This document shows positions 1,569 to 22,240 of a stretch of 25,423 bases of DNA, in pieces; within the stretch, counting starts at the first letter, position 1, and each line of letters opens with the position of its first letter. The notes below the pieces were generated by a model that searched no databases, was not told the origin of the DNA, and was given only the letters and a program-made list of their open reading frames with translations. Origin of the DNA: an uncultured delta proteobacterium (lineage in GTDB: Bacteria > Desulfobacterota > WTBG01). The translations under genes and the position numbers were made by a program. Location of the stretch: assembly GCA_963793865.1 (NCBI GenBank), contig CAWCBP010000005.1, positions 1 through 25,423 of the forward strand, read 5' to 3'.

Positions 1569-2564
1569 GTGAAAAAATTCTTTGAGGTGCATGACCGTTT
1601 CTTCCGTATTCCCTTCATGGTAGCAGCGGGTACGGCTCTGCTTGCAACTATTATTCATGGGTGCGGAATGGGCAAAAACCTGACCATGGTTGTGCAGGAG
1701 TTCCCCCGGGCTTCTACCTGCGGGCACTGCCACATTGATATTTTCAACGAATGGTCGGCATCACCTCACGCTGAGGCGTATACGAACCCGCGATACCGTG
1801 AAGCCACCGACGAATATCGATTTACCGAATGTCTTGGTTGTCACACCCCGGAACCGGCAGTGAGCAATATCACACCTTCACATCGCGCAATCTACCGGGA
1901 TGAGGGAGTGACGTGCATATCCTGTCACCTCGAAGAAGGGAAGCTGTCCGGACCATTATCCCCCACCGGGATGGTGACACCGCATCCTGTGGGGGTGGAT
2001 GCAGATCAGTATCGTGACAGTCGCTTCTGTGGTCGCTGCCATGAAGGAACGTTCGCTGAGTGGGGCACGGTTACAATGAAAGATAAGCGAACCTGCCAGC
2101 AGTGCCATATGCCGGAGCAAATACGCAAGATAACCCAGCCGGCGGGAACACTCTCCAGGTTTCTCGTCTCCTTTGAAAAGAATGTTGTACAAAAGCGCCA
2201 CACCTTTGCCGCTATTCCGGGCGAGCTCGAGATCAAACCCTATTCGCTAGAGATACGGTATCATAAAGAAAAAGCGACGATTACCGCAACCAATAATCTG
2301 CCGCATTCTCTTCCCGCCGGTGACTTCGGCATACGGATTAATGTGCTCAGTGTCTCAATAGTTGATGCAAAAGGGGATCATACCGCTATTGCTGAAAGGG
2401 AGCTCATCAAGGATCTGGGAAGTGCCATTCCACCGCAATCATCAGTTGAATGGGAAGTTGCTATCCCCCCGGAAGCGCGGGAGATTTGTGTGAGGATGAC
2501 CCGCAGGGGGTATGAAAATATTGATACGCACGAATTAATGCAGACAGTGATCCTTTTACCATGA
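1569..2564 (+). CDS. Pentaheme cytochrome c (c554/c552-like), exported, possibly a lipoprotein
   Basis: Five CxxCH motifs (CGHCH, CLGCH, CISCH, CGRCH, CQQCH), c554-type EWSASPHA context, and a hydrophobic N-terminus ending in IHG-C (imperfect lipobox). GTG start with GGAG/AGGA upstream; ATGA overlap with the next gene. Confidence 0.85.
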   Translation: MKKFFEVHDRFFRIPFMVAAGTALLATIIHGCGMGKNLTMVVQEFPRASTCGHCHIDIFNEWSASPHAEAYTNPRYREATDEYRFTECLGCHTPEPAVSNITPSHRAIYRDEGVTCISCHLEEGKLSGPLSPTGMVTPHPVGVDADQYRDSRFCGRCHEGTFAEWGTVTMKDKRTCQQCHMPEQIRKITQPAGTLSRFLVSFEKNVVQKRHTFAAIPGELEIKPYSLEIRYHKEKATITATNNLPHSLPAGDFGIRINVLSVSIVDAKGDHTAIAERELIKDLGSAIPPQSSVEWEVAIPPEAREICVRMTRRGYENIDTHELMQTVILLP

Positions 2565-4537
2565 AGAGTTTGTTTCGCCGCTTTTCTCCACTCGCCATTG
2601 CTTTCCATTGGTGCCATGGGATTCCCTATGTGGTGCTTTTTACCACCGGGACAATCATTTGTTTACAGCGGATGCTTGCCCGGGAAATCATAGAGCACGC
2701 GGTGCTGTCCCTGGTTCATCGGGTTGCAGGCATCGTACTGGTGGCAGTCCTGGCACAGCTTGCTCTTCTGCTCTTATATTCGAGAGGCCTCACGTCTTGC
2801 CTGCGGACACTTCGTGATGTGGCGGCCTGGAGAGCGCGCGACCTGATCTGGTTTTTGAAAATCCCGCTCAATGCTGTTTTCCCGGGTTTCAGCCTCCCCC
2901 CGGCGGGACGGTTCAACCCGGGGCAAAAGCTGAATATTCTGGCTGTTCTGATACTGCTGGGCGGGTTCAGTGTCTCCGGAATTTTCATGATGATCATTCC
3001 CGGTGCCCTGGGAGCCTGGGTTATTCACGCACTGCTTTTTGTGCCCGCAATCGCACTTTTCATGCTCCACCTTTTCTTTTCTCTCATCAATCCGCCAACC
3101 CGGAAGGCCTTAGGGTGCATCTTTACGGGCTATGTTTCTTTCGACTACATTGCATCCCACCATCCGCTCATGGTGCGGGGGGGAAGGGCGCGCTCTCATG
3201 GCTCGCACATATCCTGGCTTTCTGCAGTAACCGTGCTCATCCTCTTCATGCTTTTTGTGAGCGGGGCGGTGTGGACATACGGTTTTGAACAATTCAACAA
3301 CCGCATTCTCACCCTGTGGAAAAACCGTGGTACGGAAATAATATTGCCCGGAGGACTGTGCACCAGTCATGCTGATGATCCTCAAGCACACCGCTGCAGG
3401 TCCTGTCACACGCTCTTTACTTCGCTCCCCTCAGCTGCCTGCCTGTCCTGTCACCTTGATATTGTTCTGGTCATGAGTGAGCGCTCGGGTTTCCACGGCA
3501 CACTTAATGACGAATGCAGGGTGTGTCATGCTGATCATGCAGGCAGAACCGGTGACATAAGGCGGCTCGACTCGGAGCGGTTCAACCACAATCTTGCGCG
3601 TTATCCCCTCGACGGGAAACACCGCGAACTGTCCTGCGCTGCGTGTCACGGCTCTGGCGGAGGAGATGGCATCAATGAGCGCGCACGTTATATCAACCTG
3701 TGCTTTGAAGCATGCACCGATTGCCACCAGGATCCACACGGGGACCAGTTCCTCCAGACCTGTGAGCAATGTCATTCTGTCAACGGCTGGAAAGATCGGT
3801 GGCTGGTCGATGCACACGGCGGCGAAACATCATACCCTCTCCTGGGGAAACACGCTGCGGTTGAATGCGTCGAGTGTCATCCCTTGCCCGCTCCCGGAGC
3901 TGCCTTCGCTGAAGCGCGTTTTACCGGCATAGCAACAAGCTGCGAGGGGTGTCATGACGATCCCCATCGGGCGGAATTCGAGGCTGCCTGCGCAACGTGC
4001 CATACGGAAGCGGACTGGAAAGGACCGGGTCTTATTTTCACGCACGCCAGAAATAGCAGCTTCAGCATCGATGCCATTCACGGCGGCCTTCCCTGTTCCT
4101 CCTGTCACCCCGGTGACACAACACCGCAATACCGCCCTCTCTCGAAGACCTGTGAAGGATGCCATCGGGATGCAGAGATGGAGTTGCAGGGAGTTGTGCC
4201 CGCATTTGCCGGAAGATCTGATCCACATGCAAACCGCGTTGCATGCACCGAGTGTCACCGGACAGATGTTGCCTCCCCCTCACCTGCAGACTATGCCCGT
4301 GCATGCGGGGCCTGTCACAACCACCATTACGAAAAGCTTTTTTATGATTGGATGAAATCGCTCTATGAACGCGAAGTGCGGGCTGCGAAAATAGCGCAGG
4401 AATTGCGTAAGCGCAATCTCCCGGCGGCGGAGATGTTCGAAGCCAAGATGAGGGAGGCCAAGGCTGTTGGGTTGCACAATGTTTTACTTGCCCGAATGAT
4501 GTGGGATGAGATTCTGGCTTTGCCTTCCGATTTGTGA
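2561..4537 (+). CDS. Cytochrome b (FdnI/formate dehydrogenase gamma-like) fused to a 13-heme cytochrome c domain
   Basis: N-terminal TM helices with His ligands (FHW, LVHRVAG, IHALLFVPAIALFMLH) and the GRFNPGQK signature. An extra TM helix follows, then 13 CxxCH motifs with repeated YPLxGKH...CxxCH...CxxCHxDPH...CxxCH units. Confidence 0.85.
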   Translation: MKSLFRRFSPLAIAFHWCHGIPYVVLFTTGTIICLQRMLAREIIEHAVLSLVHRVAGIVLVAVLAQLALLLLYSRGLTSCLRTLRDVAAWRARDLIWFLKIPLNAVFPGFSLPPAGRFNPGQKLNILAVLILLGGFSVSGIFMMIIPGALGAWVIHALLFVPAIALFMLHLFFSLINPPTRKALGCIFTGYVSFDYIASHHPLMVRGGRARSHGSHISWLSAVTVLILFMLFVSGAVWTYGFEQFNNRILTLWKNRGTEIILPGGLCTSHADDPQAHRCRSCHTLFTSLPSAACLSCHLDIVLVMSERSGFHGTLNDECRVCHADHAGRTGDIRRLDSERFNHNLARYPLDGKHRELSCAACHGSGGGDGINERARYINLCFEACTDCHQDPHGDQFLQTCEQCHSVNGWKDRWLVDAHGGETSYPLLGKHAAVECVECHPLPAPGAAFAEARFTGIATSCEGCHDDPHRAEFEAACATCHTEADWKGPGLIFTHARNSSFSIDAIHGGLPCSSCHPGDTTPQYRPLSKTCEGCHRDAEMELQGVVPAFAGRSDPHANRVACTECHRTDVASPSPADYARACGACHNHHYEKLFYDWMKSLYEREVRAAKIAQELRKRNLPAAEMFEAKMREAKAVGLHNVLLARMMWDEILALPSDL

Positions 4538-4682: not shown

Positions 4683-6071
4683 GTGAGTAAAAAAATACTA
4701 TTTATCAACCCCGTAACCAGAGAGCAGGGAAGTCTGGTTACCGACAGGGCAACCCGTTTTCCTCCCCTTGGCCTTGTTCTTCTGGCGGCCTTGACTCCTC
4801 CTGATTGGGATGTTGAGCTCATCGATGAGAACTTCGATTCATTTAGTTTCCGGAATGCTGATCTTATTGCACTTTCAGCGATGACAGCGACCGTGAACAG
4901 GGCTTACGAAATAGCGTCCTTATATAAAAAAGAGGGGATTCCTGTGGTTTTGGGCGGTATCCATGCATCTATGAGACCTGATGAGGCCCTTTGCTATGTT
5001 GACAGCATCGTGGTCGGTGAGGGGGAGCCTGTGTGGCGGGAGTTGTTACACGACGCTCAGGCAGGAAAACTGAAAAAACTCTATAGAGGCACGAGGGCAT
5101 CAATGGACGACATTCCATTCCCCCGGAGGGATTTGCTCTCCCCCGGCTATCGTATGGGTTCCATCCAAACCGCACGGGGTTGCCCCTTCGGTTGTGAATT
5201 CTGTTCGGTAACCCTTTTCAATGGAGGAACCTATCGCTCCCGGCCAATCATGCAAGTAGTTGAAGAAATGAGAACCATCACCCAGAAGGTCGTTTTCTTT
5301 TTAGATGACAATATTATCGGACCGGATGCGCGATCACGAGCCCGCGCCGGCCTGCTTTTTGATGCCATAACGCAAAGCAGGATCAATAAGTTATGGCTGG
5401 GTCAGGCTACTGTTGACTTTGCCGACGATGAAAAACTGGTGCGGAAGGCTTATGAAAGCGGATGTCGCATTATCTTTATAGGATTTGAATCGATTAATGA
5501 AAAAAGTCTCAAAGAAATGAGAAAGCTGATGAACCTTGCCAAGGGTATTGAGCATTACGGAGAGTGCATCAAAAGGTTTCATGAGCAGGGAATTGCCGTG
5601 TGGGGCAATTTCATCCTTGGACATGACAGTGATGATCGTGCTGTCTTACAGAACACCAAGGAATTTATCATGAGAAGCGGAATTGATTTGATCAGTTTCT
5701 CCTGTCTCACGCCTCTTCCCGGAACGAGATTGTTTGAACGTCTCGACCGAGAAAAACGGATTATCTATCAAAACTATCCACACGATTGGAACCTGTATTC
5801 ATTCACCGATGTTGTTTTCAGACCGAAGCATATGACGCCGGCAGAGCTGGATTTGGGAATTAAGGAAGTAGCGGGCGGTATTTTTTCACCCTTCCAGCCG
5901 GAACGCACCCTGGTCAGATCACTGCGAGTGAACAAGAGCCTGACCTCTGCTCTCATGGCATATGCGATGAACCGGGCTTTTAAAAGAACAGCAAAGATGA
6001 TCATGGCACAGAAAGAAAAACGGTGGAGTTCCGGTTGTTCAGCACGTAAGGAGCCTGGCACAATTTCATGA
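4683..6071 (+). CDS. Cobalamin-binding radical SAM protein (class B)
   Basis: N-terminal B12-binding domain (FPPLGL, VVLGGIHAS, VVGEGE), TARGCPFGCEFC CxxxCxxC motif, FFLDDN, IGFES and TPLPGT. Confidence 0.9.
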   Translation: MSKKILFINPVTREQGSLVTDRATRFPPLGLVLLAALTPPDWDVELIDENFDSFSFRNADLIALSAMTATVNRAYEIASLYKKEGIPVVLGGIHASMRPDEALCYVDSIVVGEGEPVWRELLHDAQAGKLKKLYRGTRASMDDIPFPRRDLLSPGYRMGSIQTARGCPFGCEFCSVTLFNGGTYRSRPIMQVVEEMRTITQKVVFFLDDNIIGPDARSRARAGLLFDAITQSRINKLWLGQATVDFADDEKLVRKAYESGCRIIFIGFESINEKSLKEMRKLMNLAKGIEHYGECIKRFHEQGIAVWGNFILGHDSDDRAVLQNTKEFIMRSGIDLISFSCLTPLPGTRLFERLDREKRIIYQNYPHDWNLYSFTDVVFRPKHMTPAELDLGIKEVAGGIFSPFQPERTLVRSLRVNKSLTSALMAYAMNRAFKRTAKMIMAQKEKRWSSGCSARKEPGTIS

Positions 6072-7267
6072 AAAGGAAAATCTTACTCACCGGTGCCACA
6101 GGATTTGTAGGAAGCAATCTTTTAGCCGCCCTGCTTGATAAAGGCTTTGAGGTCATTTGCCTGATCAGAACCCGGAGGGGTGAGGGCCCCGGCAGCCGTC
6201 TATTCCGTTCTCTTGAAGGTTGTTTTTCCGGGAAGCGGCAGGTGAGGCATGCGCTGTCACAGGTTACCGTCATGCAGGGCGACATCACGAAGGAAAATCT
6301 GGGTGTAGAACCGAGTGATTATCGTATGCTTACAAAGCAAATCAGCAGTGTTTTTCACTGCGCCGCTTCAACTGAGTTTCACCCCCTCCCTTCCCGGGAA
6401 CTATGGGGGTGCAACGTTCAAGGCATGGAAAATATAATACGCCTCGCCCTGGAAGGATCGAGTATTAAGGATTTCCATTATATTAGTACGGCGTATGTTG
6501 CCGGAACCAGGGATGGTGTCATTTTTGAAGATGAACTCGACACCGGCCAGAAGTTTAATAATGAATATGAAGAGAGCAAATTTATGGCGGAGACGATTCT
6601 CAATCGATACAGGAAAGACTCCGACGTAAAGATAACCATCTACCGGCCAAGTATCATTGTCGGTCACTCATGCACGGGAAAAACCACACTCTTTAACGGC
6701 ATGTATCTTTTTTTACGCTTATTGTACCTGCTTAAAAAGCGTTATCAGACGGGCAGCAGTGCGGGAAAGACCGTAATTCCCCTGCGCGTTGTGGGAGGTC
6801 CCCAAACAACCAAAAATTTTGTTCCTATTGATTATGTGATCCGTATGGTCATGAAAATATTTGTGGACCCCCACGCCTGGGGAAAAACCTATCACCTCAT
6901 CAATACTACTCCACCCACCCTTGATCACATCAAGGTGGTCATGGAAGAGATCTTAGCCGTTGAGGGGATACAGTTTGTGAACCGGGAAGCCTTTGATCTT
7001 TCGCAGACCTCCCGGATGGAACAATGGTTCGCCAGAGAAACAGCGAGCTATAGTTCATACATGCTCAAGGAGCCCATCTTTGACGACAGGTTGGCCGGGA
7101 AACTGCGCAGCGAAGAATGGGGCAGCACCACTGTGCTTCTCGACCGGGAAGCCCTGGTGAGACTCTTTGCCTATGCAATTGACTCTCACTGGGGTAAGAG
7201 AGTGAACGGGCAATTCGATGCGATGCAGATGGAGAGAACAGTCTCTGCCCGTGCCCACAATGATTAG
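6068..7267 (+). CDS. Extended SDR of the fatty acyl-CoA / thioester reductase (R-domain) type
   Basis: ILLTGATGFVG Rossmann motif, HCAAS, YISTAYVAG, catalytic YEESK and YRPSIIVG. ATGA overlap with the upstream gene. Confidence 0.85.
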   Translation: MKRKILLTGATGFVGSNLLAALLDKGFEVICLIRTRRGEGPGSRLFRSLEGCFSGKRQVRHALSQVTVMQGDITKENLGVEPSDYRMLTKQISSVFHCAASTEFHPLPSRELWGCNVQGMENIIRLALEGSSIKDFHYISTAYVAGTRDGVIFEDELDTGQKFNNEYEESKFMAETILNRYRKDSDVKITIYRPSIIVGHSCTGKTTLFNGMYLFLRLLYLLKKRYQTGSSAGKTVIPLRVVGGPQTTKNFVPIDYVIRMVMKIFVDPHAWGKTYHLINTTPPTLDHIKVVMEEILAVEGIQFVNREAFDLSQTSRMEQWFARETASYSSYMLKEPIFDDRLAGKLRSEEWGSTTVLLDREALVRLFAYAIDSHWGKRVNGQFDAMQMERTVSARAHND

Positions 7268-7299
7268 TTCAGCAGGGATGCGATGGAGGAAAAGGGTCG

Positions 7300-7680
7300 A
7301 TGGATGAAGCACACGGCAGCCTTGTTGAGCGATACTTTGAGCAATTTCTTCCACAGGTCATCGGCAAGTCAATTTTTGCAGATCTTGATAATCTGAGTGT
7401 TGTGGTACGATTTTTTATTACAGACGGCGAACGCGGATGGACGATTAGCCTGGAGAAGGGGCAACTGATCCGGATTGAGCGGGGCTCCGCCCCGGCACAC
7501 ACCTTTTCCTACAATCTTGACGCACAGACGCTGCTCCAGGTTGTTTCGGGAACCGTGTCTCCCCAAAAGGCATTCTTTACGGGAAAAGTGAAGATACAGG
7601 GAGACACGCTCAAAGGGCTTAAACTCGCTATGATATTTGACCGGTTTATTAGGGCCTATCCATTCACGTGTGCTCTTTGA
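7300..7680 (+). CDS. SCP2 sterol/lipid-carrier domain protein
   Basis: 126 aa with the C-terminal SCP2 signature G-x-x-SPQKAFFTGKVKIQGD. Confidence 0.8.
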   Translation: MDEAHGSLVERYFEQFLPQVIGKSIFADLDNLSVVVRFFITDGERGWTISLEKGQLIRIERGSAPAHTFSYNLDAQTLLQVVSGTVSPQKAFFTGKVKIQGDTLKGLKLAMIFDRFIRAYPFTCAL

Positions 7681-7720
7681 GCACATGTCACTGTGCGGTG
7701 ATCCATTGGTACCTGATAGC

Positions 7721-8434
7721 ATGGCAATGGTTATCGAGGAAAATGTTTCTTTTATCTCGGATGGGCTCGCATTAGAGGGCGTCCTGAGTTATGACCAAGA
7801 GCTCTCTCACGCTCCCGGAGTCATTCTGTGTCCGCCTCACCCCCATTTGGGGGGAGACATGAATAATAATGTCATCATGGCAGTTCAGAATGCCCTGTCC
7901 CGCGCTGGTGTCATAAGCCTGCGATTCAACTACCGTGGCGTGGGCAACAGTCAAAGAGCCGGGGTTGATGAAAAAGAGGATCTTAAAGCCTTTTGGGAAA
8001 ACTCCTGGGCACCGGATGATGAAGCGAAAGAACAGGATGTGTTGAGTGCTATTAATTTTCTGCGGGGAATACAGGGATTAATTCATGATCAGGTTTTCCT
8101 GGTAGGTTATTCCTTCGGGTCGTATCTTGCTCTGAGAGCTGCAGAAAAGTGTCCAATGGTAAAAGCACTGGTATTAATATCACCCACTGTCCATTTCCAT
8201 GACTTCACCTATCTCAATTATTCCTCCATTAACAAGCTTGTTGTTAGCAGCAATAATGATTTTTCCTGCCCACTGGAAGAACTGATGCGCGTGTATGATG
8301 GTTTTTCCTCTCCTAAAGGCTTATATCTTGTTGATGATGCAGACCATTTCTTCATTGGCTGTGAAGACACGGTGAGTAAAAGGATTGAACAGTTTATAGT
8401 GGAGCAGCATGCGGGGGAAACGGCCAATGGATAA
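7721..8434 (+). CDS. Alpha/beta-fold hydrolase (COG2945-like)
   Basis: CPPHPHLGGDMNN, LRFNYRGVG, nucleophile GYSFG, NDF and ADHFF. The start is uncertain (in-frame ATGs at 7685, 7721 and 7727). Confidence 0.85.
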   Translation: MAMVIEENVSFISDGLALEGVLSYDQELSHAPGVILCPPHPHLGGDMNNNVIMAVQNALSRAGVISLRFNYRGVGNSQRAGVDEKEDLKAFWENSWAPDDEAKEQDVLSAINFLRGIQGLIHDQVFLVGYSFGSYLALRAAEKCPMVKALVLISPTVHFHDFTYLNYSSINKLVVSSNNDFSCPLEELMRVYDGFSSPKGLYLVDDADHFFIGCEDTVSKRIEQFIVEQHAGETANG

Positions 8435-10625
8435 ATATATTGCGTGGATTCTGGCACATCCCATGAGTATGATGGGATACTTGTTCTGTATCGCCGCCGT
8501 ATTTATCTATTTTGGTTTTTCAGTAAACATGGATAACAGCATGGAAGTGTGGTTTCCCTCTTCTGATGTTGCAGTGGATCAGTATCAGCGCTTCTTGCAG
8601 GATTTTGGAAACGACGAGTTCATCCTTATTGCCGCTGAGCACAAGGCGGGTTTTACCTACCAGGAGTTGCTTCTTGATCAAAAACTGACTCAGGCGCTTG
8701 AGGAGGTAAACGGCATAGCGTCGGTTTTCAGCCTCTCTAACATTTTTAACCAGGCTTCACTGGATTTTAACGCGTTTAGGGATGGTATGCTTGCTTCATC
8801 GCTCTTTCGCCGAGCACTCATCTCAGACGATGGGCGGGTAACCGCTCTCATCATGCAGTTATCTCCAGAAGGTCTGCGAAACCGGCAAGGAGTCGTGGAC
8901 AGGGTAAGAGAGCTTATGGTACGTGAAGTGCCAATAAGTGAAAAACTCTTTATTGCGGGCCCTCCCATATTCAATACAGAGCTGGACCGAATGTCACGAA
9001 GCGCGGCGGTATACTACTTCCCACTTTTATTTTGCGTTATCGTGTCTATTCTTTTCTTCCTTTTCCGCTCGCTGGTGGGGGTGTTTCTTCCAACTTTCAT
9101 AATAATCCTTAGTCTTTTATTTACGCTGGGCTGGATGGGACTCTGGGGCGGATCCATCAATATAGTGACTGTTGCTCTTTTCCCACTGATGATGGTTTTA
9201 TCACTCTCCTATAGTATCTATTCGTTGAGTTCCTACAATAATTACATGAGGGCGGAACCGGTTACCCCCTCCGAGGACCGCAAAAAAGAGATTATTGCGC
9301 ACTCCTGTAAGGAGGTGCGTTTCCCCATTTTTTTATGTGCCTTGACAACAGCCGTTGGTTTCGATGCTTTGATCGTGAGCGAGGTCACTCCCGTAAATGA
9401 TTTCGGTTTTTTCTCGACACTGGGCATTTCTTCTGCCTTCCTGCTGATCATGTTTTTCTTACCCCCCGCCTTGCTTTTGTTCCCCGCACCTTCCCGACCG
9501 TTCGAAGGCAATAAAGCAAATAAAAGACTTCATCACTTGTTTCTATACCTTAGTTTTTTCGTGGTAAACAAAAGGTATCACATACTTGTTTTTTGTCTTA
9601 TTCTCTTTTTCGCCTCTCTCAGTGGCATTGCCCGATTACAGGTAGAAACCAATGCTTTAAAATTTTTCCCTCAAAACAGTCAGATGGTGCAGACCTACAC
9701 CTTTATTGAAGACCGCCTCACCGGTCTTTCGCCCATAGAAATTGTAATTGAACCAAAAAATGTGCAGATAACAAATCTGCTTCCTCCTCGCTCCACTTTA
9801 ACGGAAGTCAGACTGGTTCAGGATTTTCTTTCCCGTCAAAAAGAGATTGTTACCTCGAAATCTATAGCAAACATTTTGGAAGATGACATCATGCAGGGTG
9901 TGTCACGACAGCCCTTGCGCCATCACGCACCCAGCGTGAACGATGCTGCCGTCGAAGGATATTTTAACCTGCAACGACAGGCGGTTCGCGTTTCAGCTAA
10001 GGCCAGGACGTTAGGATCATCAGAATACCGGATGTTGATTGAAAAGATTACCCACTACTTGAATACATGCTTGAGGGGAGATCTAAGGGCCTACACGACG
10101 GGAATCGTACCGATCATTTTCGAGATGCAGGATAAGTTGCTTGCATATCTGATCGAGAGCTTTTCTATTACCTTTGTAATTATCGGGCTCATCTTTCTCT
10201 TTCTCACCCGGTCATTCAAAAACATGTTAATCAGCATGATTCCCAATGTTCTCCCCATTGCGATGGTTCTGGGATTCATGGGCTGGGCCGGCATTAAATT
10301 AGATGTAGCCACAATCATGATTGCGAGTATTGCTTTAGGCATAGCTGTTGATGATACAATCCATTTTCTTTCAGTTTTTAAAAAGATGCCGTCTGGCCAG
10401 GGAGGATATGATCAACGCATTCATTCAACCCTTTCATCGGTTGGAGAGGCAATGATTTTTGCCTCGGTGGTCAACATGTGTGGATTTGCTGTCCTCTGTT
10501 TTTCCGATTTCGGACCGATGATCAACTTCGGATTGTTATCGAGCGTAACGATATTTTTTGCGCTGATATGTGAACTGATAATAATGCCTGCATGCCTGGC
10601 CGCATTTAATGTAAGACTTCGCTGA
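8427..10625 (+). CDS. MMPL/RND-family membrane exporter
   Basis: Two repeats of one TM helix, a periplasmic domain and five TM helices; ALTTAVGF and GIAVDDTIHF motifs. The ATG at 8427 follows GGGGGA and overlaps the hydrolase stop. Confidence 0.9.
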   Translation: MDKYIAWILAHPMSMMGYLFCIAAVFIYFGFSVNMDNSMEVWFPSSDVAVDQYQRFLQDFGNDEFILIAAEHKAGFTYQELLLDQKLTQALEEVNGIASVFSLSNIFNQASLDFNAFRDGMLASSLFRRALISDDGRVTALIMQLSPEGLRNRQGVVDRVRELMVREVPISEKLFIAGPPIFNTELDRMSRSAAVYYFPLLFCVIVSILFFLFRSLVGVFLPTFIIILSLLFTLGWMGLWGGSINIVTVALFPLMMVLSLSYSIYSLSSYNNYMRAEPVTPSEDRKKEIIAHSCKEVRFPIFLCALTTAVGFDALIVSEVTPVNDFGFFSTLGISSAFLLIMFFLPPALLLFPAPSRPFEGNKANKRLHHLFLYLSFFVVNKRYHILVFCLILFFASLSGIARLQVETNALKFFPQNSQMVQTYTFIEDRLTGLSPIEIVIEPKNVQITNLLPPRSTLTEVRLVQDFLSRQKEIVTSKSIANILEDDIMQGVSRQPLRHHAPSVNDAAVEGYFNLQRQAVRVSAKARTLGSSEYRMLIEKITHYLNTCLRGDLRAYTTGIVPIIFEMQDKLLAYLIESFSITFVIIGLIFLFLTRSFKNMLISMIPNVLPIAMVLGFMGWAGIKLDVATIMIASIALGIAVDDTIHFLSVFKKMPSGQGGYDQRIHSTLSSVGEAMIFASVVNMCGFAVLCFSDFGPMINFGLLSSVTIFFALICELIIMPACLAAFNVRLR

Positions 10626-10638
10626 TAAAGGAGCGAGT

Positions 10639-11757
10639 ATGTTTGCGCAATGGTTCGCACAGCCCCCTGATGAATGGCTTCGACATGTAATAGCCATCCA
10701 TTTTCATCCTGAGACGGGAACACCGTACTGGATTGAAAAGGCGCGCGAGCTGGGCGTTAATGCGCCATGCGAAATCAAGACCCTTGAAGACCTTAGCATC
10801 TTCGGTCCGATGGATGAGATGGCAATGACCACCCGTCCCATAGAGCATTTTATACCCCTTGAGTATTCCACGGAAAAGAGGCGTTTCATTTTAGGCGATA
10901 CGGCAGGCACTACCGGTACACCCAAGGTGACTGCTTACCGGGAAGACGAATTTTATCTCGCGTTTGTGGAATACTTTGCCTTTGTTGCTGAGGCAATGAA
11001 TTTTCCGAAAGGCGCCAACTGGCTGTGGATAGGGCCGAGTGGTCCGCACATCATAGGCAAGGCGGCGAGAATGGTCTGCTTGAGGATGGAAAGCATGGAT
11101 CCTTTTTCCATTGACTTTGATCCCCGGTGGATAAAAAAGCTTGCTCCCGGATCCATGGGATGGAACCGATACCTTCAACATATAGAGGATCAGGCGCTGC
11201 ACATTTTACAGACCCAAAAAATTGAAGTGTTATTTTCAACCCCTCCGGTGATTAAACGGCTGGTATCGGTACTGGATGATACTCAGAAAGCACGAATTAA
11301 AGGCGTTCACTACGGGGGAATGCCGCTTGATGCTGAATTCTACCAGGAATTGAGAACCGTGCACTTTCCCAACGCGGTTCATATTTCGGGCTATGGAAAT
11401 ACGCTTTTCGGAGTATGTTTAGAGGTCGGCAACAGCGCGATCGGGCCAACACACTATTTTTCACCCGGACCCCGGCTGATTTTGAATGTTGTTCCCCGCG
11501 TTGAGGGCCCTCACGACCGCGGGTCGGGGCATGAGCAACCCGGCCGCAAAGTGGACTATGGTGAGCGGGGACAGGTGATGTTCCACCGGCTTGATGAAAG
11601 CTTTCTCATTATCAATATGTTCGAGCGGGATGAGGCGGTGAGAATCCCCCCGAGTTCGCGTGCCCTGCAGATGGGATTGTCGCTCGATGGCGTGAGTGAT
11701 CCGCAGCCTATTGCCGATACGGCCGGTAACAGCAAACCTGCCCTGGGGCTTTATTAA
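10639..11757 (+). CDS. EhpF-like atypical adenylating enzyme (ANL superfamily, PaaK-related)
   Basis: Motifs collinear with Pantoea EhpF as I recall its sequence: HFHPETGTPYW, TAGTTGTPK (P-loop), PSGPHIIG, FSIDFDPRWIKK, STPPV, GYGNT, VDYGERG, ERDEAVRIP and C-terminal GLY. Strong RBS AAGGAG. Confidence 0.75.
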   Translation: MFAQWFAQPPDEWLRHVIAIHFHPETGTPYWIEKARELGVNAPCEIKTLEDLSIFGPMDEMAMTTRPIEHFIPLEYSTEKRRFILGDTAGTTGTPKVTAYREDEFYLAFVEYFAFVAEAMNFPKGANWLWIGPSGPHIIGKAARMVCLRMESMDPFSIDFDPRWIKKLAPGSMGWNRYLQHIEDQALHILQTQKIEVLFSTPPVIKRLVSVLDDTQKARIKGVHYGGMPLDAEFYQELRTVHFPNAVHISGYGNTLFGVCLEVGNSAIGPTHYFSPGPRLILNVVPRVEGPHDRGSGHEQPGRKVDYGERGQVMFHRLDESFLIINMFERDEAVRIPPSSRALQMGLSLDGVSDPQPIADTAGNSKPALGLY

Positions 11758-11818
11758 AAATATGTGCGGTTGTCATGTTCCTGCGCACAACTAACTTCGC
11801 ACGAGGGAGAAGACTTTC

Positions 11819-13021
11819 ATGGATACGCGGTTGAAAAAAATTGAACTGCTGGCTCCTGCGGGCAGGTGGGAGGTTTTAGACGTAGTGCTGGAAAGGGGCG
11901 CGGATGCCGTGTATCTCGCGGGGAAGGAATATAACATGCGCAGGCATCGCTCCGATTTTAATTTCAGCCGGGATGAAATCGCGCGCGCCGCAGACAAGGT
12001 TCACGCCGCCGGCGCGAAAATCTATATTACCGTCAACAGCCTGCTCAGCGAGCGAGAGCTTGATGAAATTGGAGAATACCTGGCCTTCCTGGAGTCGGTG
12101 GCGGTTGACGCTCTTATTGTCCAGGATCTTGGACTTATTCAGCTCATCACTCGGTCAGGGTTCAACCTGCCCCTCCATGCAAGCACCATGATGAACATCC
12201 ACAGTGCGGAGGGAGCGCGTGCCTGTGCCGATTCGGGCATCAGCCGCATCATTTGCTCCAGGGACGTCGCCCTGCACCAGGTCAAGCAGATGCGGGATGA
12301 CAGCGGACTCGAGATGGAATACTTTGTCCATGGAGATATGTGTATCGCGCAGAGCGGCCAGTGTTATATGAGCGGCATCCTTTTTGGCAGGAGCAGCAAC
12401 CGGGGTAAATGCATGAAGCCGTGTCGCTGGCCCTATCAGATGGTAAACCAGGGAGGAGGTGTGCTGGAGACCAAGATGGATGGTTCGTATCTCCTCGCGA
12501 CAAAGGACATCTGCCTCCTGGAATTCATACCGGAACTCATTGAAGCGGGGGTACATGCTCTGAAGATCGAAGGCAGAATGCGCGCGCCGGCCTTTCTGGC
12601 CGGTGTTGTCGAGGTGTACCGCAGGACGATTGACCAGTACTGCAGTGATCCCTATGGCTTTATCAACGATATCCGTGCATACGATGAGCTCTACCGCAAT
12701 CGGGTAAGAGATTTCTCAGCATGCTGTGCTTTGCGCAAACCTGACGCCGGCCTGGTGGGATCATCCGGAGAGAGAGAGCCCTTTTTTTTGAGTACCGCGG
12801 TGAGGGAAAAGGAAATAGACCTGTTGCATCCCGAGGAAGTCTTCAATGATACAGGAGATGTGCAGACGAGAAGGACTGATCAGGTGAACCGGGTGCTTCT
12901 TGCCGTCCATGCGGGGTCTCCTGAGGGTGCCCGGGAAGCCCTGGAGCGGGGGGCAGAATGGATTTACATTGGCGGGGAGGTTTTCCGTCTCGAGGACAAA
13001 GATGGGGGCTGTCTTCCTTAA
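11819..13021 (+). CDS. U32-family [4Fe-4S] protein, N-terminal part of a probable single gene 11819-13866
   Basis: ELLAPAG, ADAVY, LHASTM, FVHGDMC-x6-C-x15-C-x3-C and LKIEGRMR. The last ~40 aa begin a second U32 barrel (ALERGAEWIYIGGEVF). Confidence 0.85.
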   Translation: MDTRLKKIELLAPAGRWEVLDVVLERGADAVYLAGKEYNMRRHRSDFNFSRDEIARAADKVHAAGAKIYITVNSLLSERELDEIGEYLAFLESVAVDALIVQDLGLIQLITRSGFNLPLHASTMMNIHSAEGARACADSGISRIICSRDVALHQVKQMRDDSGLEMEYFVHGDMCIAQSGQCYMSGILFGRSSNRGKCMKPCRWPYQMVNQGGGVLETKMDGSYLLATKDICLLEFIPELIEAGVHALKIEGRMRAPAFLAGVVEVYRRTIDQYCSDPYGFINDIRAYDELYRNRVRDFSACCALRKPDAGLVGSSGEREPFFLSTAVREKEIDLLHPEEVFNDTGDVQTRRTDQVNRVLLAVHAGSPEGAREALERGAEWIYIGGEVFRLEDKDGGCLP

Positions 13022-13866
13022 GGGACATCATCTCCCGGGCACGCGACATGGGGAAAAATGTCGGACTGCTGACCCCACGGGTTACCCTTGCGCGCCAGCT
13101 GGATGAACTTAAGTGGTTTTTGGATCAGGCCGGTTTAGTGGCTCCGGATGCCGTGTTGGTCCATAACCTTGGAAGCCTGCACCTGGTCAGAACACAAAGC
13201 GATATTCCCATGTATGCTGATTTTTCTTTCAATGTGTTAAATCGCAGCTCCATTGAGTATCTCAGCCGCCTGGGGGCACGTCAGGTAACGCTTTCCCTCG
13301 AAGCATCTTTTAAAACCCTTAAGGATTTAGCCGGCAGCGCCTGTGTGCCTCTTGAGTGTATCATCCACGGCCCCATCCCCGGAATGTATTTGGAACACTG
13401 CCTGATGAGCATGAGCCTGATGAATACCACGTCTCACGATCCCTGTCGAGGTCCCTGCCGTTACCTTCAGTGCGGCCTTTCAGATACACTGCAACAAATC
13501 CACCCCATCGAAGTGGATCAATACTGCCGCACTCATCTTTTGTTCTCAAAGGATCTGGCCTGCCTCAATTACGTTGCAGATTTTGTGAATACCGGTGTTC
13601 GCACATTACGAATCGAGGGGCAATACTATGAGAAGGAGTTGGTGGGAGCGCTCACCGCGCTCTATGCGGATCTCATTGCAAACCCGTTTCAGGGCATTAA
13701 CGCTGCACGTTTAAAACGTCTCATCGCCATGAGTCCGCGGGGCTTCAGCCTGGGGGCATATCCGAAAGGCATATGCGAAGATGCCTCCCAGCCGCATACT
13801 GGACCCTCCCCGGATGCGCAGCCCGTCCTCCGGGACTCTTCCTTGAGGCACTCTTCGGCTCACTGA
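12958..13866 (+). CDS. U32-family protein, C-terminal part (second U32 domain after the frameshift at ~12981-12984)
   Basis: VLVHNLG, ADFSFNVLN, VTLSLE, IHGPIPGMYLEHC...CRGPC, LFSKDLACL and LRIEG. It lacks its own U32 N-terminal strands, which are in the upstream frame. Confidence 0.75.
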   Translation: MDLHWRGGFPSRGQRWGLSSLRDIISRARDMGKNVGLLTPRVTLARQLDELKWFLDQAGLVAPDAVLVHNLGSLHLVRTQSDIPMYADFSFNVLNRSSIEYLSRLGARQVTLSLEASFKTLKDLAGSACVPLECIIHGPIPGMYLEHCLMSMSLMNTTSHDPCRGPCRYLQCGLSDTLQQIHPIEVDQYCRTHLLFSKDLACLNYVADFVNTGVRTLRIEGQYYEKELVGALTALYADLIANPFQGINAARLKRLIAMSPRGFSLGAYPKGICEDASQPHTGPSPDAQPVLRDSSLRHSSAH

Positions 13867-13884
13867 TCCTCGGGAGCAGCTTAT

Positions 13885-15189
13885 ATGTCGCAAACCTATC
13901 TCGGACCGGAAGCAATTCTCGAGAAGAAGAAGAGATACCTCATTCCCTGTGTCTACCATTTTTACCGAAACCCGCCTCAGATCGTGAGAGGGGAAATGGA
14001 ATATCTGTATGATCACCAGGGGAAGAGGTACCTCGATTTTTACGCAGGGGTTGCGGTGGTCAATGCAGGACACTGCCATCCCGAAATAACAGATAAAATA
14101 TGCAAACAGGTCAAAACGCTGCAGCACACCACGGCCATATACCTCACCCAGCCCATGGTGGAGCTTGCAGAAAGATTGTCATCGATTACTCCCGGAGACT
14201 TATCCAGCACCTTCTTCTGCAACAGCGGTTCCGAGGCAAACGAGGGAGCGCTTATGCTTGCCAGGCTTTTCACCGGAAGAGAAGGGTTTGCCGCGCTTGA
14301 AAACTCTCTTCACGGGAGAACCTATTTGACCATGAGCGTGACGGGCATTCCCATGTGGAGAACAGATCACAGCTTGTCATCCCGGGTTGTGTTTATCCCC
14401 CCACCCTACTGTTACCGTTGCTCATTCCAGTTGAGCTACCCGAGTTGTGATCTCAGATGTGCCTATGAGATTGAAAAGGCAATAGACAGCATAGGATCGC
14501 ACCGGATTGCTGCTTTTATTGCAGAACCCATTCAGGGCAATGGAGGCATCATTGTTCCACCTCCCGATTATTTTAAGGTGGCAAAGGACATCCTGGATCG
14601 TCATCGGATTCTCTTCATTGCCGACGAAGTACAAACGGGCTTTGGACGGACCGGAACCATGTTTGCCGTCGAGCAATGGGGCGTTGTGCCCTCCATTCTC
14701 ACCGTCGCTAAGGCCCTGGCAAATGGTGTGCCGGTGGGGGCATTTATCACCAATCCGGATATTGCCTCCTCTTATACTAAACCGGGTGCCTCAACCCTGG
14801 GGGGGAACCCTGTAACTGCAGTAGCTGCACTTGCAACACTAGAAGTCCATCAGAAATATAACCTGCGAGGCAATGCTGTAAAGATGGGAGAACATTTCAT
14901 GGAATGTCTCTTAGCCTTACAGGAGAAACATGCTCTTATCGGGGAAGTGCGGGGAAGGGGTTTAATGCTGGGGGCAGAACTGGTCAGGGATAATAAGACT
15001 CCCGCTGCTCAAGAGACAGACACTATTCTGGAATACCTGAAAGATCACGGGGTTCTTATTGGTAAAACCGGGGCAGGTAGAAATGTTCTTACTTTTCAAC
15101 CACCCTTAATTATCTCAAAAGATCAGATTGATCAGGTCGTAACAACACTGGATCGCGCCCTGGCTCAGCCCATGGCTAAAAGCGCGTGA
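13885..15189 (+). CDS. Class III PLP-dependent aminotransferase (AGXT2/GabT-like)
   Basis: YLDFYAGVAVVNAGHCHP, NSGSEANE, LHGRT, IAEPIQGNGG, FIADEVQTGFGRTG, PLP lysine in AKALANG, and STLGGNP. Confidence 0.92.
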   Translation: MSQTYLGPEAILEKKKRYLIPCVYHFYRNPPQIVRGEMEYLYDHQGKRYLDFYAGVAVVNAGHCHPEITDKICKQVKTLQHTTAIYLTQPMVELAERLSSITPGDLSSTFFCNSGSEANEGALMLARLFTGREGFAALENSLHGRTYLTMSVTGIPMWRTDHSLSSRVVFIPPPYCYRCSFQLSYPSCDLRCAYEIEKAIDSIGSHRIAAFIAEPIQGNGGIIVPPPDYFKVAKDILDRHRILFIADEVQTGFGRTGTMFAVEQWGVVPSILTVAKALANGVPVGAFITNPDIASSYTKPGASTLGGNPVTAVAALATLEVHQKYNLRGNAVKMGEHFMECLLALQEKHALIGEVRGRGLMLGAELVRDNKTPAAQETDTILEYLKDHGVLIGKTGAGRNVLTFQPPLIISKDQIDQVVTTLDRALAQPMAKSA

Positions 15190-15318
15190 AGAGGATGAGG
15201 CTTTTCCTTGTAATGTGCAATATCACCGGATTATCTCACCTGTAAAAATGCAAGGCAAACCTCCGAAGCAGGCGTGAGGAAGTTCCAACCATCCCCATGT
15301 CAAGCGGAAAACAAATTC

Positions 15319-16725
15319 ATGAAGATATTGCTTGTTTATCCTGCACCGGAACGATTTCCCATCAGCGTCTATCAATATCGTTATGTTTCGGTTCCCGCCA
15401 TATTGACGCACATGGCCGCCCTGACTCCTCCTGAACACAGCATCAGGCTCGTCGATATGATGGTTGGTGACCCTGTGCCATATAACGAGGCGTTCGATCT
15501 CGTTGGTATCACAGTTCGAACCCCTATGGCACCTGTTGCCTATCAGATTGCGGACCGGTTCCGCGCACAGGGAATCACGGTTGTGCTGGGAGGAGCTCAC
15601 GTTTCCGTGCTGCCGGAAGAAGGAAAGACACATGCAGACTCGGTAATTATTGGTGAAGCAGAGGACACCTGGAGTTTGCTCCTGCATGATCTTGAAACTC
15701 AGCAGATGGCAGACTATTACGTTTGCGGACCTCATGAAACCAACATGCTAAAAGGGCGGGTGAGGCATCTACCGCAGCGCCCGAACTTGAAAGGTCTGCC
15801 TGCTCCACGCACTGATCTGCTTGATCGCGACAGGTACATCATGGATACTTTTATGACCACCCGCGGCTGTGTTTTTGGCTGTCGTTTTTGTAATGTGCAG
15901 CCACTGTTTGGATCGCACATACGTCACCGTCCAATTCCAGAGGTAATAAAAGAGCTGATTGATGCACGTCGACTTTTGCTTTCCGTGGATGACAATGTAT
16001 TCGGAGCACCGGGGGATGCAGACTATTACCTGCAGCTCTATGGGGCGATGAAGGACCTCAGACCCGCCAGGTATTGGGCCGGACAAGGTTCGCTTGCGGT
16101 GGCATCCTATCCCCGGGCTGACAAACTGCTTGAAACAGCCTCCAGAAGCGGTTTGTCGCTTTTAACCGCAGGTATTGAGGCGTTGGATTGCACGGGGCTT
16201 GAAGAAAGCGGTGCTTACCGGAAGCTCGGGCTTGTGCATGCAGAAAACATGTCTGCCTGGCAGACCGGTGAAAGCATCAAGAAGATTCAAAGTTATGGTA
16301 TCAATGTGCTCGGGTATTTCATCATAGGATTCCGGCAGGATACCATGAGTTCATTTGACCGCGTATTGGAGTTCTGCGATCACCATTCGATCATACCGGT
16401 ACCCATTCTTCTCCATCCTCTACCCGGCACGGAACTCTATGATGAATATGTGCGGGAAGGTCTCATGCGGGACGGGGCCGACTGGGCCGATTTTGATGGG
16501 GCCCATTTAGTGCTTCTCCATCCGGCATTTGAGAAAACCGGCATTGAGACGGCCTACATAAAAAAAGTGATGGAAGCAAACAGTCTCGCGCGACGGACAA
16601 GACGGAACCTGCTGCGGCTTTTTGCGAATCCGCGAATCGACAGCGCCATAAACTTCTACAAAACCCAGCAGGTGATGCATCGGGGAATACGTGAGTACGT
16701 AAACTGCATGAACCATTCGGAGTGA
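15319..16725 (+). CDS. Second cobalamin-binding radical SAM protein
   Basis: MKILLVYP start (ATG 15319 preferred over GTG 15274), VVLGGAHVS, IGEAE, TTRGCVFGCRFC, VDDN and PLPGT. Confidence 0.9.
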   Translation: MKILLVYPAPERFPISVYQYRYVSVPAILTHMAALTPPEHSIRLVDMMVGDPVPYNEAFDLVGITVRTPMAPVAYQIADRFRAQGITVVLGGAHVSVLPEEGKTHADSVIIGEAEDTWSLLLHDLETQQMADYYVCGPHETNMLKGRVRHLPQRPNLKGLPAPRTDLLDRDRYIMDTFMTTRGCVFGCRFCNVQPLFGSHIRHRPIPEVIKELIDARRLLLSVDDNVFGAPGDADYYLQLYGAMKDLRPARYWAGQGSLAVASYPRADKLLETASRSGLSLLTAGIEALDCTGLEESGAYRKLGLVHAENMSAWQTGESIKKIQSYGINVLGYFIIGFRQDTMSSFDRVLEFCDHHSIIPVPILLHPLPGTELYDEYVREGLMRDGADWADFDGAHLVLLHPAFEKTGIETAYIKKVMEANSLARRTRRNLLRLFANPRIDSAINFYKTQQVMHRGIREYVNCMNHSE

Positions 16726-18356: not shown

Positions 18357-18812
18357 GTGCGAGGCAACTGTTTGGGAAATAAAACGAGCGATACGGACAG
18401 GCGAACGTTTCTTGGGAAAGTGTGGACTGCCGCACTTGCTCTCGCCGGTTGCTCCGCCGCCTTCATTGCGGGCGGTTTTCTCTATCCGGTAGCGAGGCGC
18501 AAGTCCCCGCCTTTGTTTGTGTGCCTGGAATCACAGGTCTCCCCCGGGAAACCTCTTGAAATAAAGGATCCGGAAGGAAGAAATGTTCTCCTCCTGCGAA
18601 AGGATGGCGGGGAAATTATTGCGCTCGGATCTATCTGCCCTCATTTGGGCTGCACCGTTTACTACCGGCCGCAGAAGAACATATTTGAATGCCCCTGTCA
18701 CCAGGGTGTTTTTGACGCGGACGGCAACCCGATAGCAGGTCCACCGGAACAGCCACTCAATCATTACGAAACCGAAGTGCGCGGCGGTAAGGTTTTTGTG
18801 CAATTCGCATAG
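18357..18812 (+). CDS. Rieske [2Fe-2S] subunit of a Rieske/cytochrome b complex
   Basis: Tat motif DRRTFL plus a TM anchor, and boxes CPHLGC and CPCH. The start codon is uncertain. Confidence 0.92.
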   Translation: MRGNCLGNKTSDTDRRTFLGKVWTAALALAGCSAAFIAGGFLYPVARRKSPPLFVCLESQVSPGKPLEIKDPEGRNVLLLRKDGGEIIALGSICPHLGCTVYYRPQKNIFECPCHQGVFDADGNPIAGPPEQPLNHYETEVRGGKVFVQFA

Positions 18813-18820
18813 GAGACGTT

Positions 18821-19894: not shown

Positions 19895-19896
19895 GC

Positions 19897-21507: not shown

Positions 21508-21550
21508 GAACTCCGTTAATCTGCAGGACCTGACCGGGCTGTGCCGCAAA

Positions 21551-22240
21551 CTATGCAAGTCGGCGCGCGCCGCCGGCAAGCGCTTTGAGTCCCTCGCGAT
21601 CAAGGATTTTGATGGTGCGCTGTCCCGGGGAGGCGATCAGATCCTCGCTGCTCATGCGGGCCAGAATGCGGGAAAGCGTTTCCGGTATGGTTCCCAGCAG
21701 GCTGGCAAGCTGGGTCTTGGATATATCCAGGGTGAGATGCGGTGAGCGGCCCCCGGTTTCGCTGAGATAGAGCAGGTAGGCGGACAGCCTGCCCGGCACC
21801 TCTTTTAACGACAGGTCTTCGACCAGTGCGCTGAACCTTCGCAAACGCACGGAGAGCACGGCGAGCATGTTCATGGCAAGGGATGGATTCTTTTTTATCA
21901 AATCAATAAAGGCCCTGCGCGGGATGAAAAACGATTTGATTTCTTCCATTGCCTGAGCATGGGCGGGAAAATGCGCCCCGGAGAATACCGGGACTTCGCC
22001 AAACGGTTCACCGGGACCGATGATGTGCAGGATCTGCTCTTTTCCTTCGCGGGAGATTTTGAACACCTTGACCCGCCCCGAAATGACAAGGTAAAATCCG
22101 TCCCCGGCATCGCCTTCCGCAAAGATGGTTTGCTTTTTTTTAAAAGACTTCCGCACCGCTATCGATGCTAATTGTTTATGGTGTTCCGGTGTCAGCCCCT
22201 GGAACAGGGGTATGTCTGCCAGCTGTTTCAACACATCCAT
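21551..22240 (-). CDS. hcpR: Crp/Fnr-family transcriptional regulator, HcpR type
   Basis: cNMP-like domain (GKEQILHIIGPGEPFGE), HTH with LGTIPETLSR (ExxSR), and divergent arrangement with hcp. Confidence 0.8.
   Translation of the reverse strand: MDVLKQLADIPLFQGLTPEHHKQLASIAVRKSFKKKQTIFAEGDAGDGFYLVISGRVKVFKISREGKEQILHIIGPGEPFGEVPVFSGAHFPAHAQAMEEIKSFFIPRRAFIDLIKKNPSLAMNMLAVLSVRLRRFSALVEDLSLKEVPGRLSAYLLYLSETGGRSPHLTLDISKTQLASLLGTIPETLSRILARMSSEDLIASPGQRTIKILDREGLKALAGGARRLA

Follow-up and report, generated by a model that had tools for sequence, protein, structure and literature searches.

A gene cluster of anammox and other bacteria that probably branches from the futalosine pathway of menaquinone synthesis

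What lipophilic compound might be made and exported by a gene cluster that carries no polyketide synthase (PKS), nonribosomal peptide synthetase (NRPS), or terpene core gene? The question is raised by a 25,423-nucleotide (nt) stretch of DNA (here called the window) from an uncultured delta proteobacterium of the Desulfobacterota (GenBank assembly GCA_963793865.1, contig CAWCBP010000005.1), which is the entire contig C5 of a 3.85-Mb genome (G000; 98.6% complete). The original prediction, made from the window alone, listed nine to ten genes between positions 4683 and 16725, encoding two B12-binding radical S-adenosylmethionine (SAM) enzymes (rSAM1 and rSAM2), a short-chain dehydrogenase/reductase (SDR), an SCP2 protein, an alpha/beta hydrolase, an MMPL exporter, an EhpF-like adenylating enzyme (the ligase), a tandem U32 protein, and a class III pyridoxal phosphate (PLP) enzyme. 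Pfam and NCBIfam scans of the window proteins recovered all of these genes at this span and on the plus strand. They also bore out the absence of PKS, NRPS, and terpene core genes, and a cluster without such a core is likely to escape rule-based mining. Below, G numbers denote genomes (G000 being the window's own), L numbers denote loci from genomes or metagenomes, and P numbers denote proteins.

Futalosine genes in and around the cluster

A genome-collection scan yielded 178 confirmed relatives, of which the best 80 loci were analyzed, and a metagenome scan yielded 192, with 80 loci analyzed. Because some of the metagenome loci are the same as genome loci, the sets cannot be treated as independent. 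(The earliest genome-collection scan, with one protein as the query, gave no match.) Several relatives carry genes of the futalosine pathway in the cluster itself. Directly upstream of the SDR gene, mqnA and an mqnE-mqnC fusion, the MqnC half of which scores above the family cut-off, are found in L067, L085, and the metagenome loci L135, L140, L161, and L163, and mqnE-A-C-D occupy this position, at the head of the cluster, in a Hydrogenedentota locus (L078). MqnP was not found in 6 of the 30 genomes tested, including all three genomes with in-cluster mqn genes, and MqnL was likewise not found in these three. G063, a single 7.5-Mb chromosome, contains MqnA as its sole MqnA/D-family member, with no MqnD and no MenD match over the cut-off; lacking MqnD, MenD, MqnP, and MqnL, its mqn genes would therefore be unable to finish menaquinone by known enzymes. 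The canonical futalosine menaquinone set is complete in G000 on another contig (C8:622000-639000), with a U32-type-looking gene at 637236-638105 (minus strand). In-cluster mqn genes where menaquinone cannot be finished, together with the separate set in G000, suggest that the cluster supplies early mqn genes of its own in the former case and presumably borrows an intermediate elsewhere. On this genomic evidence, a branching of the cluster from futalosine (menaquinone) synthesis appears well supported.

An MqnD-family gene also lies inside the cluster in 16 of the 80 genome loci, mostly between the ligase and PLP enzyme genes. Its product matches MqnD (PDB entry for TTHA1568; E = 1e-47) and forms a subfamily of its own, with the motifs IHEELL and F-A/C-N versus the canonical IHE-S/G-R-F-T-Y and YVN. 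IHE is present in 26/26 sequences, and two residues that we take to line the substrate pocket, Tyr in YVN and Asp in DVE/DIE, are replaced. Most genomes with this MqnD paralogue show two further MqnA/MqnD-family matches. The tandem U32 gene and the paralogue were found in 50 and 16 genome loci and in 43 and 10 metagenome loci, respectively, and never together (0/80 in each set); a genome-wide search of 38 genomes detected the tandem U32 orthologue in 17 and in 0/16 paralogue genomes. On the EhpF tree, the U32/paralogue state changes four times, and the approximately unbiased test rejects the placement of all paralogue loci in one clade (p-AU = 0.0002; 29 rows). An independent-pairs comparison gave three swaps on starred branches (p = 0.25); it covers only rows with one of the two states and is a swap count, not a test. 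The U32 protein had been predicted to hydroxylate without O2; that it is necessarily a hydroxylase is not supported, because a non-redox paralogue stands in its place in many Planctomycetia loci. The tandem U32 protein is also ruled out as an ordinary replacement for the MqnD of menaquinone synthesis, given that canonical MqnD is present in G000 and in anaerobic ammonium-oxidizing (anammox) genomes as well. Nor does it look like the housekeeping copy expected of the TrhP/RlhA RNA hydroxylases: G000 and G061 hold separate shorter and longer U32 genes.

These genes could alternatively form a UbiT/UbiU/UbiV-like system, in which SCP2 holds a prenylated quinone (menaquinone or one of its precursors), the tandem U32 protein hydroxylates it without O2, and cytochromes take the electrons. 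SCP2 with two U32 domains does mirror UbiT-UbiU-UbiV, and the motif CX6CX15CX3C described for that system (10.1101/587956) is present at residues 175 to 202 (C175, C182, C198, and C202), with a second conserved Cys set in the C-terminal half. In addition, U32 hydroxylation is described as requiring an electron acceptor (PMC10990095), and of the 31 genome loci with cytochromes, 30 encode U32 while the paralogue is absent from all. However, every score lies under the family cut-offs, i.e., 155.5 bits (195 for an intact homologue) versus 440 for UbiU, 35 to 47 bits (82 for an intact homologue) versus 275 for UbiV, and 27.8 versus 46.9 bits for UbiT-type SCP2 (NF047962), although an SCP2 domain is present; the TrhP equivalog score is similarly 181.5 versus 534 bits. 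Three genomes with U32 (G063, G090, and G097) have no MqnP or MqnL and so would have no menaquinone to modify, L145 combines cytochromes with the non-redox paralogue that replaces U32, and the ligase is left unexplained. We consider this system quite improbable.

Patterns of co-loss suggest that the PLP enzyme is the functional partner of the tandem U32 protein or the MqnD paralogue. Its gene is accompanied by one of the two in 54 of 55 loci. Five genomes lack both U32 and the paralogue, and in four of them (G079, G093, G098, and G101) the PLP enzyme orthologue (reference match, 59% and 569 bits in G078) was not found (best matches, 38 to 40%). The best PDB match of the enzyme is ETNPPL, a phospho-lyase. 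The PLP lysine (Lys277) is present in 50/50 homologues, and the position that we take, from GabT-type enzymes, to carry the keto-acid-binding Arg is Thr, Ala, or Val in 48/50; the enzyme is likely an aminotransferase. A search for SDR orthologues found none in G083 and G091, yet both genomes retain the PLP enzyme, and we therefore argue that its substrate is not the SDR product.

Conserved co-occurrence of the genes, which the original prediction had named as a check, is not a matter of chance. Because many loci are truncated at contig ends, counts among the 80 genome loci are followed here by those among the 49 genome loci of at least 15 kb: SCP2, 64 and 48; SDR, 62 and 47; PLP enzyme, 55 and 45; MMPL, 54 and 37; tandem U32, 50 and 35; hydrolase, 47 and 34; pentaheme cytochrome, 31 and 27; multiheme cytochrome, 30 and 26; and B12 radical SAM, 2 and 2. 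The core (SDR, SCP2, hydrolase, EhpF-like enzyme, MMPL, tandem U32, and PLP enzyme) is found in anammox bacteria, other Planctomycetota, Desulfobacterota, and Hydrogenedentota. The presence of many Planctomycetia loci (Gemmataceae and Pirellulaceae) among the carriers does not bear out the proposed restriction to anaerobes. Within the length range that was searched, 1027 homologues of the EhpF-like protein were found, and its named top matches are mostly from Brocadia, Kuenenia, Scalindua, and Anammoxibacter (about 50 to 55% identity). The cluster is present in 59 of the 132 genomes of the anammox class, in 39 of the 64 genomes with hydrazine dehydrogenase (which rules it out as an anammox core gene set), and in 32 of the 40 of those that reach at least 3 Mb. 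Its distribution around G000 is patchy (1/60 relatives and 0/400 phylum members), leaving vertical inheritance within that lineage unsupported. On a quick, unrooted EhpF tree, from which no donor is claimed, the clade of the window falls together with that of the anammox bacteria (SH-aLRT, 99). A literature search outside subscription journals found no paper describing the cluster, and supplementary anammox transcriptome or proteome tables may list its genes. The cluster is thus conserved, widely spread, and apparently undescribed. A variant locus (L147:6997-13107) encodes a different single-domain U32 protein, SDR-SCP2, an EhpF-like enzyme, a YceI-like protein, a hydrolase, and an ABC exporter, and has no PLP enzyme.

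A proposed route to a naphthoquinone-type carrier

We judge it fairly likely that the product consists of a futalosine-derived naphthalene head and a lipid tail and is exported. It would most likely be a non-isoprenoid naphthoquinone-type membrane electron carrier for the neighboring cytochromes. Of the original prediction, the conserved and apparently uncharacterized cluster without a PKS/NRPS core, making and exporting a lipophilic product, is retained; of the two products it named, the membrane redox carrier is a better guess than the aminolipid. In the proposed route, MqnA, MqnE, MqnB, and MqnC would take chorismate to cyclic dehypoxanthine futalosine (cDHFL), as encoded in G000 on C8. The PLP enzyme with the tandem [4Fe-4S] U32 protein, or with the MqnD paralogue, could then convert cDHFL into a hydroxynaphthoate that is modified, most likely by amination; in reduced clusters that lack the PLP enzyme and U32 or paralogue, plain 1,4-dihydroxy-6-naphthoate would be used. 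MqnD cleavage of cDHFL to dihydroxynaphthoate is redox neutral, while transaminated cDHFL would need, by mass balance, a two-electron oxidation to yield an aminonaphthol, which fits an iron-sulfur partner such as U32. For the paralogue, air oxidation in aerobes is our guess. The EhpF-like enzyme may next adenylate the carboxyl group, which would be lost on the way to menaquinone; its match to EhpF covers residues 13 to 359, its GTTGxPK loop is conserved, and some of its homologues are labelled ThnN by their sources.

For the tail, the best PDB match of the SDR is the MxaA R domain (E = 2e-25). The protein resembles the R domains of carboxylic acid reductases, its catalytic motifs are conserved, and it is often fused to SCP2 (e.g., in L007 and L085). 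In G066, an SDR orthologue (tree support, 99) lies inside a type II fatty acid synthase (FAS) operon with ketosynthase (KS) and acyl carrier protein (ACP) genes (KS-KS-FabG-ACP-KS-SDR-FabZ), which indicates acyl-ACP as the substrate; the SDR is probably an acyl-ACP reductase. In this role it would produce a fatty alcohol from acyl-ACP, and SCP2 would hold the alcohol. Transfer of the naphthoyl group onto it may be the task of the serine hydrolase, whose Ser, Asp, and His are invariant in 34/34 aligned sequences. SCP2 is fused to the EhpF-like ligases P0162, P0166, and P0179, and one ligase (P0128) is fused to the hydrolase. A predicted complex of the EhpF-like enzyme with the hydrolase scored 0.36 versus 0.00 for the best control (runs agreeing in 96% or more of contacts; partner model confidence [pLDDT] of at least 88). 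The mark for a complex was reached by 116/157 solved and 2/215 mismatched pairs (at 0.60 or below, by 18 solved pairs and both mismatches), and the model weakly supports such a complex. The exact structure that these head-group (PLP enzyme with U32 or paralogue) and tail-joining (SDR, SCP2, and hydrolase) steps imply remains doubtful.

The same ligase and SDR might instead act as a split carboxylate reductase that reduces the same futalosine-derived acid, with the PLP enzyme turning the resulting aldehyde into an aminomethyl group and the hydrolase acylating the amine. The ligase is indeed similar to EhpF, and the SDR resembles the R domains of NRPSs as well as those of carboxylic acid reductases; distant EhpF-family proteins are fused to a class III aminotransferase (P0185) or a zinc alcohol dehydrogenase (P0221), the former in keeping with this scheme. 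EhpF/EhpG and GriC/GriD would be the models for such a split reductase, and a reductase paired with a class III aminotransferase follows the MxcG/MxcL logic of myxochelin synthesis. However, the PLP enzyme persists in the two genomes without a detected SDR, it is missing together with U32 or the paralogue where the SDR stays, and the SDR was able to move into the FAS operon of G066. We regard the split reductase as unlikely; its head group would also be futalosine derived, and some of its weight is therefore held in common with the naphthoquinone-type explanation.

If the product is the naphthoquinone-type carrier, MMPL would deliver it to the periplasmic side, and there it may serve as a redox carrier for the b- and c-type cytochromes or for a lipoprotein (c14). 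The cytochrome genes at 1569-4537, missed by the original prediction, are counted as cluster members because their orthologues lie inside 31 and 30 of the 80 related loci, and by this gene content the cluster begins further upstream. All five CxxCH motifs of the pentaheme cytochrome recur in 29/29 orthologues, and most of the multiheme fusion aligns with its orthologues in L084 and L085 at 35 to 38% identity. The c14 protein (L058:13116-14237 and 15 other genome loci) has an invariant Cys-Gly-Cys and His and a model pLDDT of 84. It matched no Pfam or NCBIfam family and gave no Foldseek match at E = 0.001 or better; VIA-align returned an NLP-like fold (Z, 8.8; root mean square deviation, 3.8; 173 aligned), which is near the chance level for such searches. 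Pentaheme cytochrome and c14 occur in 31 and 16 genome loci and never together (0/80), which suggests that they are alternative periplasmic partners. A split cytochrome b (petB/petD-like) with a degenerate PEWY motif and no Rieske partner in the cluster was also observed in L033 (14637-15660) and 26 other anammox loci.

The B12 radical SAM enzymes, which had been placed at the center of the cluster, are not core genes (2/80 genome and 2/80 metagenome loci; rSAM2 orthologue in 1/5 genomes), and they would add optional methyl groups in the window's clade. They are 33% identical to each other. rSAM1 scores under all NCBIfam cut-offs, and no orthologue of it was found in related loci (best matches, 25 to 26%). 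A 66% orthologue of rSAM2 lies directly upstream of the SDR gene in L007, a member of the window's clade, and only four other sequences reach at least 66% identity. A membrane lipid unrelated to quinones, tailored mainly by these enzymes in a hopanoid-like (HpnN/HpnO/HpnP) or ladderane-like manner, could account for the weak NCBIfam matches to HpnN, HpnA, HpnJ/R, and TIGR04072 (all under the cut-off), for the strong anammox presence, and for TIGR04072-like genes beside L007 and L019. Against such an aminolipid stand the rarity of the radical SAM genes, the many non-anammox carriers and some anammox genomes without the cluster, and the mqn genes, which it does not explain. No squalene-hopene cyclase over the cut-off was found in G000, G063, G066, G067, or G101 (G000 gave no match at all), and this result (0/5) largely rules out hopanoid tailoring. 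The two window enzymes score 76.5 and 42.5 bits versus the TIGR04072 cut-off of 360, and the window has no FAS genes; the ladderane candidate clusters described earlier are FAS-II loci with other genes (PMC2649909; 10.64898/2026.05.19.726425). We hold the aminolipid to be highly improbable.

A ladderane link through the SDR-bearing FAS operon of G066 was also rejected: the long ACP of that operon occurs in 24/47 carrier genomes, just one of them anammox, and in 6/6 sampled cluster-free members of G000's class. In G000 itself, C14:57200-66300 holds a type II FAS/PKS-like operon that encodes several ketosynthases together with an unusually long ACP of about 132 amino acids (aa); such operons (also L193 and L199-L206) occur throughout G000's class and in many Planctomycetota. 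A different B12 radical SAM family lies beside the cluster in three lineages (L007:16526-18106, L019:16018-17433, and L096:12141-13604), and its L019 member scores 351.7 bits against TIGR04072.

Several observations weigh against a futalosine-derived carrier. Because no mqn gene lies in the window, the link rests on relatives; the in-cluster mqn cases stem from only two lineages that are independent of each other, and of the three genomes concerned, two are drafts. Draft gaps do occur: G082 lacks MqnP and G081 lacks MqnL, and neither has in-cluster mqn genes. G098 (a draft genome) carries a reduced cluster and no MqnA/D or MqnC match. As for the partnership of the PLP enzyme, G080, the fifth genome without U32 or paralogue, has a PLP enzyme fragment at a contig end, and G081 has U32 without a detected PLP orthologue; the contigs of both end inside the cluster. 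The SDR lies in a FAS operon in a single genome, MMPL is missing from many Planctomycetia loci, and the cluster is not universal in anammox bacteria. To our knowledge, no U32 protein performs an MqnD-like reaction. The U32 enzymes characterized so far hydroxylate, using prephenate (PMC10990095), and the same source describes most U32 subfamilies as having no known function.

A fuller version of the scheme is possible, if tentative. Most anammox bacteria would have, beside menaquinone, a new class of respiratory carrier, a fatty-tailed amino-naphthoquinone that is exported to the opposite membrane face and wired to dedicated b/c cytochromes, and U32 would be a non-hydroxylase iron-sulfur enzyme that aromatizes aminated cyclic futalosine, a task that falls to the MqnD paralogue elsewhere. 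The scheme puts a name to the substrate, and provides enzymes that can be assayed, for a cluster that most well-assembled anammox genomes contain. Anammox bacteria are central to nitrogen loss in oceans and wastewater, and their electron transport is incompletely mapped. If true, it would add a second fate of the futalosine pathway in respiration-linked physiology and explain genomes that retain mqnA, mqnE, and mqnC without the genes to complete menaquinone. The repeated swap between U32 and the MqnD paralogue is a direct lead to a new U32 function.

Gene layout and neighboring regions

The features of the cluster in the window are listed in Table 1. From rSAM1 to the PLP enzyme, the genes are separated by -8 to 61 nt (-4 between rSAM1 and SDR, then 32 and 4, -8 between hydrolase and MMPL, then 13, 61, and 18), and 129 nt precede rSAM2. 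The tandem U32 gene is split into two overlapping frames, with the frame change at about 12982-12985 within a short T run. Since the closest relatives are uninterrupted at this site (L086; L006, 678 aa) and 3 of 22 G000 genes tested against relatives show frame changes, the split is probably an assembly indel. Promoter and terminator scans of the window were at the chance level (17 versus 16.3 and 20 versus 14.8). Four contig sets from RNA libraries cover 30/30 bins of a Brocadia locus and its flanks too; DNA carry-over is possible, and this is not the window's organism.

Table 1. Features of the cluster in the window
Feature	Position	Strand	Evidence
Pentaheme c-type cytochrome, lipoprotein-like N-terminus	1569..2564	+	Pfam c554/c7; 5 CxxCH
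Cytochrome b561-type membrane domain fused to 13-heme c cytochrome	2561..4537	+	Pfam Ni_hydr_CYTB + c7/c3
B12-binding radical SAM enzyme 1 (rSAM1), accessory, probable methyltransferase	4683..6071	+	Pfam; CxxxCxxC
Thioester-reductase-type SDR, probably acyl-ACP reductase	6068..7267	+	NAD_binding_4
SCP2 lipid-binding protein	7300..7680	+	Pfam SCP2
Alpha/beta hydrolase, proposed aroyl transferase	about 7685..8434 (start may be 7721)	+	Intact Ser-Asp-His
MMPL/HAE3-type resistance-nodulation-division (RND) exporter	8427..10625	+	Pfam MMPL; TIGR00921 203 bits, under 352 cut-off
EhpF-like aryl-acid adenylating enzyme, the cluster's marker gene	10639..11757	+	PDB EhpF, E 5e-29
Tandem U32 protein, two conserved Cys sets	11819..13866	+	Pfam U32 in both frames
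Class III PLP enzyme, AGXT2/ETNPPL-like group	13885..15189	+	Pfam Aminotran_3
B12-binding radical SAM enzyme 2 (rSAM2), clade-restricted accessory	15319..16725	+	Pfam; CxxxCxxC

Downstream, positions 18357-24111 encode a Rieske protein, a cytochrome b, and an octaheme cytochrome resembling hydroxylamine oxidoreductase (HAO), followed by a CRP/FNR regulator and a hybrid cluster protein. This is probably a nitrogen-oxide reduction or stress region that is not conserved with the cluster. The hcp gene reads out of frame at about 23440-23600, and further indels are likely. At 24271-25364, two overlapping open reading frames without family matches are possibly a single frameshifted gene. At the other end of the window, 90-1115 (minus strand) encodes a 341-aa protein without a Pfam or NCBIfam match, which presumably resembles the catalytic domain of cobalamin-independent methionine synthase.

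Comparison with known systems

With the canonical futalosine pathway (MqnA-E, MqnP, MqnL, and MenG), the cluster would share the early genes and cDHFL or the naphthoate. It differs in that the carboxyl group is apparently ligated, not removed, in that G000 keeps its complete set separately on C8, and in that the three carriers of in-cluster mqn genes have no MqnP or MqnL. Streptomyces alkyl quinones, which are reportedly alternative respiratory carriers made by type III PKSs, are similar as non-isoprenoid, alkyl-tailed quinones beside menaquinone; they differ in the type III PKS, and no common gene has been shown. The resemblance to UbiT/UbiU/UbiV (10.1101/587956; PMC10990095) lies in SCP2 and two U32 domains with four-Cys motifs acting on a quinone-like product. 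In the cluster, however, the U32 domains are fused, all three family cut-offs are missed, there is no prenyltransferase, and the MqnD paralogue is interchangeable with U32.

The ligase, placed in the EhpF family (PMC3175449), belongs to the same short adenylating-enzyme family as those of EhpF/EhpG (phenazine AGA), GriC/GriD (grixazone), and ThnN/ThnO (thienamycin). Unlike in those systems, none of the 22 proteins of the window that were scanned is a reductase of the EhpG/GriD type, and an R-type SDR and a serine hydrolase are present instead. PhzA/B matches were found in 0/5 carrier genomes, and no control genome gave a signal either.

The closest parallel is the synthesis of PM100117/PM100118 in Streptomyces caniferus (gonM1-M4, GonSL, and GonMT), in which dedicated mqn genes and an AMP ligase are described as feeding a naphthoquinone unit (PMC4763440). 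Both systems have extra futalosine genes for a product other than menaquinone (in-cluster mqn genes in the relatives L067, L078, and L085 and the paralogue in 16/80 loci, not in the window), a naphthoate carboxyl group that is kept, with an adenylate proposed, and optional ring methylation. The cluster differs in having an EhpF-type ligase and U32 or a divergent MqnD with a PLP enzyme, and in having no PKS, ACP, or ketosynthase III (KSIII); no such assembly line was found in the window or among annotated neighbors common to at least three loci. Its SCP2, MMPL, and cytochromes indicate a membrane carrier, not the decoration of a macrolide. Apart from the PKS/ACP feature of that system, the gene content suggests that the cluster works most like the naphthoquinone branch of PM100117.

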